A DNA stretch of 64,000 nucleotides from a virus: UHGV virus genome UHGV-0326994; one strand, written 5' to 3'. The first letter of the stretch is position 1. Each line of letters opens with the position of its first letter. Of the stretch, positions 34,457 through 36,671 are shown piece by piece. Below the pieces are notes generated by a model that saw only the letters and a list, made by a program, of their open reading frames with translations, ran no database searches and had not been told where the DNA came from. The translations under genes and the position numbers were made by a program.

Positions 34457-34828
34457 ATGAAGGCTAAGAGTGCAAAAGACTTTTATTGCTTCCTACAATC
34501 CTATATCCGCTCCGTGGAGAATGGTGAAAGATATAATCTTAATGATGTTATTGCATCACCTTTAACATGGAGACTAAGTAGATGGCCTGAAGAAGATATC
34601 ACACCAACTAGCGAACAACCTACCTACAACCCAGATATTAATCTCCCAGATTCAGATAAGTTACTGTACCCAATGTTCCACATTGTCGGACTTGGCACGT
34701 TTCTTATGGATATTCAGTATGTAATTGGTAAAGGTTATAAGGTCGAAGGTATCGTTGTTGGTGATGTATCTCCACAACATAAAGGCTATTTTAGATTAAA
34801 CGCACGTTTAGAGGCTAAAAAGAAATGA
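34457..34828 (+). CDS. hypothetical protein, paralog of the N-terminal domain of the next gene
   Basis: 123 aa; shared motifs (RYxxxxxxxxxxPLTxxxxWPEeDI...FxMDxQYxI..GK) with residues 1-120 of the 34825-36207 product. Confidence 0.45.
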   Translation: MKAKSAKDFYCFLQSYIRSVENGERYNLNDVIASPLTWRLSRWPEEDITPTSEQPTYNPDINLPDSDKLLYPMFHIVGLGTFLMDIQYVIGKGYKVEGIVVGDVSPQHKGYFRLNARLEAKKK

Positions 34829-36207
34829 TTAAAGCAAAGACTTACCCAGACTTCAAAGAGTTCGTAAAGGGTTTCGTTGCAAATGTAAAGGCTGGTAAGA
34901 GGTATGATTTTAGAACATATCAAGAGGCTATTTTGCCACTTACTTATAGTTCGTATTGGCCTGAAGCTGATATTGCAGAAGTTGAGAAGTTTGACTACAA
35001 ACCAGACTACAAAGTCCCATTTAGAGATGATTTGCTTTACAGCATCGGTGCTCAAATGAGAACTTCTGATTTCTTCATGGATTTGCAATACGCAATTATC
35101 AATGGTAAAGACGTTGATACTGTTTATTGTGAATGGCTGGCAAGAGTTAAACCATTCTCAATGTTAAATGCTAAGCTGAAAGATGCCATTAAACCACCAG
35201 CAATCACTCAGCAACCAACAAATCAAACAGTCAATGAGGGTGGTAAACTTACCCTTAGTGTTGTTGCATCTAATGCCACTGGCTATCAGTGGAAGAAGGA
35301 TGGTGAGGACATCTCCAGTGCCACCTCTGCAACTTACACAAAACAGTCAGTGGTTCCTTCTGATGCTGGTTCATACACTTGTGTTGTATCTGGAGAGGGT
35401 GGAACAAGTGTCACATCAGATGCAGCAACAGTTACTGTGAATGCCTTACCAGTGATTACTAAGCAACCTTCTAACCAGACTATCAATGAAGGTGGAAACA
35501 TCAGCTTAGCAGTTACTGCAACAGGTGCAACTGGTTACCAGTGGAAGAAAGATGGTTCTGACATCCCTTCAGCTACAAAGGCCACATATAGCAAATCTGG
35601 TGCACTTCCAGCAGATGCTGGTTCCTATACTTGCGTTGTAACAGGTGCTGGAGGTTCTGTCACTTCTAACCCTGCAACCGTTACTGTAAAAGCTTTACCA
35701 GTTATCACTCAACAGCCAACTGCAAAAACGGTTAACGAGGGTGGTACGCTAACCCTTAATATCGCTGCAACTGGTGCAACAGGCTACCAGTGGAGCAAAG
35801 ATAACGTAAATATTGAGGGAGCAAAATCTGCAACCTTTACCAAAGCTAGTGTAACACCTGCTGATGCTGGGTCTTACAAATGTACGGTAACTGGCGCAGG
35901 TGGAAATGTAGTCTCTAACGCTGCTGTAGTCACTGTTAATGCGCTTCCTGTAATCACTCAACAACCAGCCAATCAGGAAATCACTGAAGGTGAGACCTTA
36001 ACTCTGAATGTTGTGGCAACAGGTGCAACAGGTTATCAGTGGAAGAAGGGTGGCACGAACATTCCTAGTGCAACTGCTGCAACTTACACCAAAGAGAGTG
36101 CAACCACTGATGATGCAGGAAGCTACACTTGTGTAGTTACTGGCGCAGGTGGCTCTGTAACATCTAGTGCGGCAACAGTTACAGTTAACCCAGCAGGGGA
36201 GGCATAA
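34825..36207 (+). CDS. protein with N-terminal domain plus five tandem Ig-like (BIg-type) repeats
   Basis: 460 aa; five ~80 aa repeats of pattern ITQQPxNQTxNEGGxLTL...TGATGYQWKKDG...AGSYTCVVTGAGGSVTS...TVTVNALPV. Confidence 0.6.
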   Translation: MIKAKTYPDFKEFVKGFVANVKAGKRYDFRTYQEAILPLTYSSYWPEADIAEVEKFDYKPDYKVPFRDDLLYSIGAQMRTSDFFMDLQYAIINGKDVDTVYCEWLARVKPFSMLNAKLKDAIKPPAITQQPTNQTVNEGGKLTLSVVASNATGYQWKKDGEDISSATSATYTKQSVVPSDAGSYTCVVSGEGGTSVTSDAATVTVNALPVITKQPSNQTINEGGNISLAVTATGATGYQWKKDGSDIPSATKATYSKSGALPADAGSYTCVVTGAGGSVTSNPATVTVKALPVITQQPTAKTVNEGGTLTLNIAATGATGYQWSKDNVNIEGAKSATFTKASVTPADAGSYKCTVTGAGGNVVSNAAVVTVNALPVITQQPANQEITEGETLTLNVVATGATGYQWKKGGTNIPSATAATYTKESATTDDAGSYTCVVTGAGGSVTSSAATVTVNPAGEA

Positions 36208-36671
36208 TGCAACTCTCAAGAAAAGGTTTAGACGCTATTAAGTTCTTCGAAGGTCTGAAGTTAGAAGCTTACGAAGACTCTGCCGGAATCCCAACAATTG
36301 GGTATGGGACAATCCGTATTAACGGAAAACCTGTTAAGATGGGAATGAAAATTACTGCTGAACAAGCTGAACAGTATCTTCTCGCGGATGTTGAGAAGTT
36401 TGTTGCAGCAGTGAACAAAGCTATCAAGGTTCCAACTACTCAGAACGAGTTCGATGCACTTGTAAGTGAAACATACAACATCGGTATCACAGCTATGCAG
36501 GATTCTACATTTATCAAGCGCCACAACGCTGGTAATAAGGTAGGTTGTGCAGAAGCTATGCAGTGGTGGAACAAGGTTACAGTCAAAGGTCAGAAGGTCA
36601 CTTCAAATGGACTGAAAAACAGACGCAGAATGGAAGCTGACATTTATCTTGACAGTGTATACCCAAAGTAA
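36207..36671 (+). CDS. endolysin (T4-type lysozyme, GH24)
   Basis: 154 aa; FEGLKLEAYEDSAGIPTIGYGT catalytic motif; start overlaps the upstream stop (TAATG); terminator follows. Confidence 0.85.
   Translation: MQLSRKGLDAIKFFEGLKLEAYEDSAGIPTIGYGTIRINGKPVKMGMKITAEQAEQYLLADVEKFVAAVNKAIKVPTTQNEFDALVSETYNIGITAMQDSTFIKRHNAGNKVGCAEAMQWWNKVTVKGQKVTSNGLKNRRRMEADIYLDSVYPK

Follow-up and report, generated by a model that had tools for sequence, protein, structure and literature searches.

The 460-amino-acid (aa) immunoglobulin (Ig)-repeat protein encoded at positions 34825 to 36207 of UHGV virus genome UHGV-0326994 is, judging by its sequence, very probably the hexamer decoration protein of Ounavirinae phages, known as Hex-Dec in Bas63, gp20 in Sf14, and gp36 in Felix O1. 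The window, by which we mean the whole 64,000-nucleotide (nt) stretch analyzed, has ~91% nucleotide identity to Escherichia phage JohannRWettstein (Bas63) in the region of the Ig-repeat gene, which identifies it as a Felixounavirus. Hex-Dec itself, its capsid site, and its variable number of Ig domains are already known, having been published in 2025 for Sf14 and Bas63. The gene lies between a stand-alone paralogue of its N-terminal domain and an endolysin gene. On this comparison of sequences, the feature is real and cannot be put down to chance, since the trio is present in more than 230 phage records; the Hex-Dec locus is conserved across ~250 Ounavirinae records. The features of the window that bear on the analysis are as follows.

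34418..34433, plus strand: terminator-like hairpin (AGGGGCTAGTGCCCCT and a T-rich tail) just 5′ of the three-gene unit, from a consensus scan
34457..34828, plus strand: Ig-less stand-alone paralogue of the capsid-binding domain, 123 aa, phrog_4463 (function unknown), from BLASTP and a fold match
34825..36207, plus strand: probable Hex-Dec, 460-aa open reading frame, matching 9ncf_S and 9c2d_S
34825..35196, plus strand: predicted capsid-binding domain (CapBD) at the N terminus of Hex-Dec, from alignment to 9ncf_S and 9c2d_S
35197..35448, plus strand: Ig-like repeat 1, aa 125-208, kept in nearly all homologues (Pfam, MAFFT)
35449..35697, plus strand: Ig-like repeat 2, aa 209-291, found in variants with three and four Ig domains (Pfam, MAFFT)
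35698..35946, plus strand: Ig-like repeat 3, aa 292-374, an extra internal domain in common with Bas63 among the loci examined
35947..36207, plus strand: Ig-like repeat 4, aa 375-460 and the stop codon, the conserved terminal domain
36207..36671, plus strand: endolysin, GH24 T4-type lysozyme, 154 aa (PF00959, phrog_7)
36681..36698, plus strand: intrinsic terminator (AGGCTCCTTCGGGAGCCT and TTTTTATTTT) closing the unit, equivalent to Felix O1 t35
18154..19257, minus strand: major capsid protein (MCP), the predicted binding partner of Hex-Dec, ~99% identical to Bas63 MCP 9ncf_A

A terminator-like hairpin stands on either side of the paralogue, Hex-Dec, and endolysin genes (34418-34433 and 36681-36698); the first is the counterpart of the annotated Felix O1 terminator t38, ggggctgatgcccctttaactatttat (Felix O1 Table 2, PMC3185647). 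A sigma-70 promoter scan gave 6 matches, compared to 11.2 expected in shuffled sequence, and the stretch from the upstream hairpin to the first ATG contained none of them. A reading of this DNA made from the sequence alone (the sequence-only reading) had placed the Ig-repeat gene outside the structural module. It does lie apart: the module is at ~1900-25000 on the minus strand, with an array of 25 tRNAs separating it from the Hex-Dec gene.

The 460-aa protein matched Bas63 Hex-Dec (9ncf_S) with 93% identity over residues 1-458 of 460 (E value, 3e-278), and its residues 1-372 aligned to Sf14 gp20 (9c2d_S/9c3a; E value, 2e-165). PDB entries 9NCF and 9C2D are titled [quoted passage not shown] and “Bacteriophage Sf14 Capsid Icosahedral reconstruction,” respectively. 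Bas63 Hex-Dec, modelled in the icosahedral capsid map as chain S of 9NCF, consists of a CapBD and four predicted Ig-like domains and has facet-edge hexamers as its sole binding sites (PMC12609058). Each asymmetric unit of the Sf14 capsid contains a single gp20 monomer; mass spectrometry detected the protein in virions, and its R79 and R107 form salt bridges to D221 of the MCP, gp34 (PMC11821841). In Felix O1, CsCl-purified virions contain gp36 (14 peptides, 44% coverage; PMC3185647, published in 2010). Both arginines, Arg79 and Arg107, can be read from the translation of the window Hex-Dec, and Asp221 is conserved in the window MCP. The CapBD is 95 to 99% identical across most Felixounavirus records and matched no Pfam family. 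Since the protein has been seen in the capsid by cryo-electron microscopy (cryo-EM) in two close relatives, it would be a standard component of the virion rather than a partner in lysis. The sequence-only reading had named both options. Its “displaced decoration protein” proved correct, given the 93% identity to Bas63 Hex-Dec and the homology to Sf14 gp20, whereas a lysis role for this phage Ig protein does not fit a stoichiometric capsid component with, in the relatives, one monomer per asymmetric unit and 60 per head.

We infer the capsid location in this phage from very close homology. As in the relatives, one monomer would occupy the central depression of a hexamer through the N-terminal ~120-aa CapBD, anchored as in Sf14 by salt bridges from Arg79 and Arg107 to MCP Asp221. 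At 93% identity to Bas63 Hex-Dec, its sites would be the pentamer-proximal hexamers of a T=9 head, giving 60 copies per head, and the 20 facet-centre hexamers, which carry none in the relatives, would be bare here too. The C-terminal Ig-like domains, four in this protein, would form a flexible arm pointing outward; neither map resolves it. From the analogy with T4 Hoc we infer an adhesion role for the arm, whose contacts with surfaces or with other particles would be weak and reversible and which would not be needed on most laboratory hosts. The essentiality score of Bas63 gp124 was higher on strain S17-1 than on three other hosts (PMC11482910).

Head decoration proteins of this family have been misannotated as “tail protein” (PHROG 3995 and most GenBank records), “kappa-carrageenase,” and “s-layer homolog protein.” The first of these names is the commonest annotation among homologous records; the Ig domains also match “major tail protein” phrogs, and Felix O1 gp36 was given that name in 2010 (PMC3185647). 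Taken at face value, the names would have the Ig domains decorate the tail tube or sheath. We find this barely credible. The label derives from Ig-domain similarity alone, both cryo-EM studies built the chain into hexamer-centre capsid density and assigned the tail components to other gene products (PMC12609058, PMC11821841), and the only matches of the N-terminal domain in the PDB are the capsid chains 9c2d_S and 9ncf_S.

Pfam searches of the 460-aa protein identified Ig_3 (3.8e-43), I-set (4.8e-33), and also Ig_2, with four stretches matching each. Borders placed by means of the motif P[AV]IT[QK]QP in the protein and a MAFFT alignment gave four Ig-like repeats of 83 to 86 aa, spanning 35197-36204. 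The sequence-only reading had described five Ig-like repeats of ~80 aa; the repeat type is borne out by Pfam, but the count is not. Pairwise identity of the repeats is 61 to 70% for protein and 61 to 69% for DNA, such that the earlier figure of ~70% at the DNA level holds only for the upper end of the range, while the accompanying view that the duplication is not recent agrees with the measured values. A recent duplication was rejected because identity is too low. Tandem Repeats Finder reported no DNA-level array at the repeats, their divergence being too high.

T4 Hoc is, like Hex-Dec, a non-essential hexamer-centre monomer with a small capsid-binding domain, a string of Ig-like domains, and a negatively charged surface (PMC12609058). 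However, the capsid-binding domain of Hoc is C terminal and its Ig domains are N terminal, whereas the CapBD of the window Hex-Dec is N terminal. The Hex-Dec CapBD is also larger and topologically distinct, with a pseudo-two-fold and minimal sequence similarity to that of Hoc (PMC12609058), and Hex-Dec, unlike Hoc, leaves some hexamers unoccupied. The PHROG matches labelled “Hoc-like” (phrog_2973, 4069, and 3945) run from residue ~129 onward and so cover only the Ig region. Having neither the Hoc domain order nor a homologous capsid-binding domain, the window Hex-Dec falls outside the T4 Hoc family.

Among Felix O1-type relatives, the closest counterpart is Bas63 Hex-Dec (bas63_0124, 9NCF chain S), which is also 460 aa long (~93% identity by tblastn) and likewise has a CapBD with four Ig-like domains, the paralogue upstream, and the endolysin downstream at a TAATG junction. 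Most of the ~30 substitutions that set it apart lie in the Ig repeats, and it comes from a different host phage. Gp20 of the Shigella phage Sf14, a Mooglevirus (9C2D/9C3A chain S), has an 86% identical CapBD with R79 and R107, an Ig-like arm, and the same two neighbours, but it has three Ig domains in 372 aa and is separated from the endolysin by an 8-nt gap with no overlap. Felix O1 gp36 is the orthologue at the same locus, where the lysin ORF35, ORF36, and the 123-aa paralogue ORF37 are in the same order; it is transcribed late, and mass spectrometry identified it in virions (PMC3185647). Unlike the window protein, it is 294 aa long, in the two-Ig length class, and it was wrongly called a (major) tail protein in the past. 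Gp38 of the Erwinia phage phiEa21-4, a Kolesnikvirus, occupies the syntenic position immediately upstream of the endolysin and is distantly homologous in its CapBD (35% identity), but it has a single Big_2 domain in place of the I-set-type Ig domains and is without a stand-alone paralogue. Hex-Dec homologues have 1 to 4 Ig-like domains in the genus.

The stop codon of Hex-Dec overlaps the start codon of the downstream gene (gcaTAATGcaa), as the sequence-only reading had stated, and a GGAGG lies inside the end of Hex-Dec, four bases 5′ of that ATG. The downstream gene encodes a GH24 endolysin that matched Phage_lysozyme (PF00959; 5.1e-41, profile positions 2-125 of 125) and phrog_7 (endolysin). 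Its catalytic residues Glu15, Asp24, and Thr30, in FEG...EDS...PTIGYG, were aligned by eye to E11, D20, and T26 of T4. The endolysin sequence shows neither a hydrophobic (SAR) segment at its N terminus nor a binding domain; the first of these absences led us to reject a SAR or signal-anchored type. The enzyme is small and globular, of a GH24 kind that, among endolysins of Gram-negative phages, works without a binding module.

The sequence-only reading had suggested that the Ig-repeat protein could be a cell-wall- or exopolysaccharide-binding partner of the endolysin; such a protein would assist or target the translationally coupled lysozyme. Conservation gives this some footing: the order of Hex-Dec followed by the endolysin is shared by Felixounavirus, Mooglevirus, and Kolesnikvirus, and the TAATG junction and internal GGAGG are kept in all 24 examined Felixounavirus-type loci with both genes. 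However, the overlap is replaced by a gap of 1 to 8 nt in most Mooglevirus and Suspvirus loci and by 49 nt and an annotated terminator in phiEa21-4. Overlaps are, moreover, common in the gene cluster (8 of 13 junctions, three of them TAATG). In Felix O1, reverse transcription-PCR grouped ORF36 and ORF37 with the late-class structural genes; the lysin ORF35 belonged to the 25-min class and peaked earlier (PMC3185647). No cell-wall-binding module (LysM, SH3, PG_binding, CW_7, SPOR, or similar) was found by Pfam, whether in the N-terminal domain or in the 123-aa paralogue, and only Ig-type families passed the cut-offs. Together with the capsid location in Bas63 and Sf14 and the kind of endolysin involved, these data leave the proposed partnership unsupported and highly improbable. 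For a capsid decoration protein, adjacency to the endolysin would be inherited synteny in a compact, terminator-bounded transcription unit, and the TAATG would be the usual gene packing of this genome, coupling translation at most and not function. There may nevertheless be some selection for co-expression with the endolysin, given the conservation of the junction and GGAGG in those 24 loci. In genomes packed as tightly as these, overlapping stop and start codons at a lysis gene are no evidence of a lysis function.

The sequence-only reading had also described the N-terminal domain as duplicated in the upstream gene, and that gene is indeed a true paralogue: its 123-aa product aligns to the first ~120 residues of Hex-Dec with 35% identity over 121 aa (BLASTP E value, 7e-17). 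It corresponds to Felix O1 ORF37, Bas63 gp125, and Sf14 gp21. Its stop codon overlaps the Hex-Dec start (ATGA), and in the loci examined it is always directly 5′ of Hex-Dec with this overlap. No Pfam family matched it. The only PDB matches of its AlphaFold2 (AF2) model (mean pLDDT, 67) were the CapBDs of 9c2d_S and 9ncf_S (TM score, 0.59; probability, 1.00). A homologue search with the paralogue returned only close relatives, at 65 to 97% identity, and hence the AF2 alignment was shallow and the model moderate, yet sufficient for a fold match. When profiles of the paralogue and the CapBD were searched against 1.84 billion representatives, 13 clusters had E values of ≤0.001 and 7 had E values of ≤1e-10. 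The top seven were proteins of 118 to 377 aa, lengths seen in Ounavirinae, and the weakest match was a 4,283-aa protein (E value, 6e-4) that is likely due to chance; we concluded that there is no wider CapBD family to learn from.

The paralogue is under purifying selection (dN/dS, ~0.11) and would be an old CapBD duplicate kept by selection. Neither the Sf14 nor the Bas63 structural paper comments on this conserved Ig-less protein (PMC11821841, PMC12609058). Given its CapBD fold, its constant position, and its late expression together with ORF36 in Felix O1 (PMC3185647), the paralogue could compete with Hex-Dec for hexamer centres or fill the 20 facet-centre hexamers, with the pair setting the decoration density. 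We consider this decidedly unlikely. In the paralogue family, Gly stands at the position matching contact residue R79, and mostly Gln or His at that matching R107; the other hexamers are without density in Bas63 (PMC12609058); ~20 of 253 genomes lack the paralogue; and the 17 proteins identified in Felix O1 virions do not include it, even though some of them are smaller (PMC3185647). The purifying selection, late co-transcription with Hex-Dec, loss of both contact arginines, and lack of detection in mature Felix O1 virions are tentatively consistent with another possibility, still an unlikely one, that the paralogue is no bystander but acts on the capsid, capping hexamer centres transiently or competing for them while the head assembles or matures, or that it uses the CapBD fold for a non-virion target. 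As such a cap or competitor, it would set where and how densely Hex-Dec binds.

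The 460-aa Ig-repeat gene lies in a region that is 87 to 92% identical at the DNA level to >200 Felixounavirus genomes, with Escherichia phage JohannRWettstein (Bas63) as the best match (91.4%). It is the middle one of three tightly packed ORFs on the plus strand (34457-36671), joined to the 123-aa ORF by an ATGA overlap and to the 154-aa ORF by a one-base overlap reading gcaTAATGcaa, the stop/start overlap with the lysozyme gene that the sequence-only reading had described. Since the structural module is on the minus strand and the Ig-repeat gene is in a separate plus-strand cluster, the gene is outside that module, as had also been stated, and on the opposite strand.

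Features of the window
1901-4588 (tail fibre) to 23353-24969 (large terminase), minus: structural module
18154-19257, minus: major head protein, within the structural module
25399-31165: array of 25 tRNAs (ARAGORN)
31331-32746, minus: 471-aa DUF2828/DUF7788 protein (phrog_850; "RNA-binding protein" in RefSeq relatives), directly adjoining the tRNA array
about 33590-40340, plus: short gene cluster containing the three-gene unit
34418-34433: terminator-like hairpin directly 5′ of the first ORF (consensus scan)
34457-34828, plus: 123-aa ORF, paralogue of the capsid-binding domain (CapBD) without Ig repeats
34825-36207, plus: 460-aa ORF, Ig-repeat protein (Hex-Dec)
35197-36204, plus: Ig repeats R1 to R4 (aa 125-208, 209-291, 292-374, and 375-460; 83 to 86 aa each)
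36207-36671, plus: 154-aa endolysin, GH24 phage lysozyme (PF00959, E 5.1e-41)
36681-36698: terminator-like hairpin directly 3′ of the last ORF, AGGCTCCTTCGGGAGCCT followed by a T run (consensus scan)
39019-39522: 167-aa ORF with two hydrophobic segments

In the spacer from the upstream hairpin to the first ATG, the plus strand reads TATTTATA (34440-34450). Read on the other strand, it is the T4 late-promoter consensus, TATAAATA, and hence in the wrong orientation for the three plus-strand genes; the spacer being AT-rich, the resemblance is probably coincidental. In the tRNA array, Rfam gave 24 matches, of which one (29368-29446) is weak and additional to the ARAGORN calls, and missed tRNA-Tyr (30586-30673) and tRNA-Met (30836-30912), both called by ARAGORN.

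A sequence search of the PDB matched residues 1 to 458 of the 460-aa protein to 9NCF chain S (E 3e-278) and also matched the protein to chain S of 9C2D/9C3A (372 aa; E 2e-165). By title, 9NCF is an icosahedral reconstruction of the Bas63 capsid, and the other entries reconstruct the capsid of Shigella phage Sf14 in the same way. Matches to capsid chains of both phages settle the identity of the protein and bear out one of the two earlier suggestions, a displaced decoration protein: judged by sequence, it is the already characterised head decoration protein Hex-Dec, and tblastn places it at ~93% identity to Bas63 Hex-Dec (gp124). The feature is therefore real and already known, as Hex-Dec with its neighbours. 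The name comes from the Bas63 paper, in which Hex-Dec binds facet-edge hexamers as a monomer, other hexamers in the map are without Hex-Dec density, and the CapBD (the first ~120 residues) is followed by four predicted Ig-like domains too mobile for resolution; the authors regard the function as like that of T4 Hoc, but the topology as distinct and the domain order as reversed (PMC12609058). The Sf14 protein, gp20, is present as one monomer per asymmetric unit, was found in particles by mass spectrometry, and forms salt bridges from Arg79 and Arg107 to Asp221 of the capsid protein (PMC11821841). All three contact residues are kept in the window: R79 and R107 in the translation, and D221 in the major capsid protein (~99% identical to its Bas63 counterpart). 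The Felix O1 homologue, ORF36 (294 aa), likewise adjoins the lysin gene, ORF35; its detection in CsCl-purified virions in 2010 (14 peptides, 44% coverage) already pointed to a virion protein (PMC3185647). In a transposon-style essentiality screen, Bas63 gp124 was needed more on S17-1 than on three other hosts, which the authors took as possible surface adhesion (PMC11482910). Our literature search did not find the name Hex-Dec outside the cryo-EM work.

Pfam matched the 460-aa protein to Ig_3, Ig_2, and I-set over four stretches (E 3.8e-43 to 4.8e-33). With borders set by the recurring P[AV]IT[QK]QP motif, there are four repeats rather than the five counted from sequence alone, and the earlier description of the feature is otherwise correct. 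The repeats are 61 to 70% identical in protein and 61 to 69% in DNA, and TRF did not detect them at the DNA level. Hex-Dec homologues in loci L001 to L032 of the phages compared come in lengths of 210, 294, 377, and 460/461 aa, each longer than the last by a whole Ig domain. Matching their domains to the four repeats of the window showed that two-Ig homologues consist of R1 and R4 and three-Ig homologues of R1, R2, and R4, R3 being an extra internal domain of the window and Bas63 among the loci examined; an IMG/VR contig encodes another four-Ig form (461 aa) with a different third domain. Thus, the first and last domains are conserved and changes in Ig number are internal, in agreement with the published conservation of the CapBD and first repeat and variability in repeat number (PMC12609058). 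Kolesnikvirus homologues (phiEa21-4 gp38, 2941-3555 in locus L003; phi63_307 "cgkA," 2441-3055 in locus L034) have the same N-terminal anchor with a Big_2 domain in place of the I-set-type Ig domains. One Kolesnikvirus record labels the homologue "kappa-carrageenase," and elsewhere the family appears as "tail protein," "major tail protein," or "s-layer homolog protein"; in each case a head decoration protein has likely been misannotated. The window repeats (35197-36204) also have a very strong match in PDB 9FLP chain A (17 stretches, E 1.2e-83), to the Ig array of GhpA, a grappling-hook protein of Aureispira. This match is much better than that to any other solved phage decoration protein and suggests a repeat type common to Hex-Dec and bacterial surface proteins.

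The other earlier suggestion was a cell-wall- or exopolysaccharide-binding partner of the endolysin. The order of CapBD protein and endolysin is indeed kept across the subfamily (Felixounavirus, Mooglevirus Sf14, and Kolesnikvirus phiEa21-4 and phi63_307), and all 24 Felixounavirus-type loci with both genes have TAATG with an internal GGAGG. Unlike gene order, the junction itself is not conserved: most Mooglevirus/Suspvirus loci have a 1- to 8-nt gap, and in phiEa21-4 the two genes are 49 nt apart, with a terminator annotated between them. Overlap is the local packing style, since 8 of the 13 gene junctions in the plus-strand cluster (33592-40340) overlap (by 1, 4, 7, or 8 nt) and TAATG occurs there three times (36207, 37509, and 38139). 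By RT-PCR in Felix O1, transcripts of lysin ORF35 and of ORF38 are highest at 25 min and those of ORFs 36 and 37 at 60 min, the latter alongside structural genes (PMC3185647). A Pfam search of the three proteins detected no cell-wall-binding module, and the endolysin, a small globular enzyme, has no SAR segment. In relatives, moreover, the Ig-repeat protein is located on the capsid, and being a stoichiometric capsid component is part of what the sequence-only reading had named as telling against such a partner. The endolysin-partner hypothesis is thus not supported, and we take the adjacency to be inherited synteny, not a lysis partnership. Because no holin gene adjoins the endolysin, the 167-aa ORF at 39019-39522 may be a holin-like candidate. 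It had no Pfam match and, by synteny and equal length, is the counterpart of Bas63 gp116; in PhageMaP, gp116 had a higher essentiality score on strain S17-1 and was proposed to be a lysis or membrane protein.

The one part that goes beyond the already characterised Hex-Dec locus is the role of the 123-aa protein (phrog_4463, a function-unknown family). Over its entire length it is 35% identical to the first ~120 residues of Hex-Dec (E 7e-17), confirming the reported upstream duplication of the N-terminal domain. Its AF2 model is of moderate confidence (pLDDT 67); across the whole PDB, the matches of the model are limited to 9c2d_S and 9ncf_S (TM 0.59, probability 1.00), all further hits having E above 0.7. 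It is a genuine paralogue of the CapBD, present in about 233 of the 253 phage records that matched and lacking in about 20 (e.g., SP116); Kolesnikvirus, with its single gene, does not have it. In each of the compared loci where it occurs, it immediately precedes Hex-Dec, and the two genes share an ATGA-type overlap. Summed dN/dS over 29 to 31 relatives was 0.11 (CapBD, 0.06; endolysin, 0.07), so the paralogue is under purifying selection. In Felix O1, the paralogue (ORF37) and ORF36 are transcribed together at a late stage. Detection in Felix O1 virions extended to proteins of 9.7 and 11.7 kDa, and the 17 proteins found do not include ORF37 (PMC3185647). The paralogue family has an invariant Gly where Hex-Dec has contact residue R79 and mostly Gln/His where it has R107. 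Late transcription, absence from the proteins detected in Felix O1 virions, loss of the contact residues, and purifying selection together indicate a functional protein that probably does not bind mature hexamer centres in the manner of Hex-Dec. The Bas63 and Sf14 cryo-EM papers do not mention it (PMC12609058, PMC11821841). A profile search returned just 13 representative clusters at E ≤ 0.001 (7 at E ≤ 1e-10), the top seven being proteins of Ounavirinae-like length, and the fold is thus confined to this phage group.
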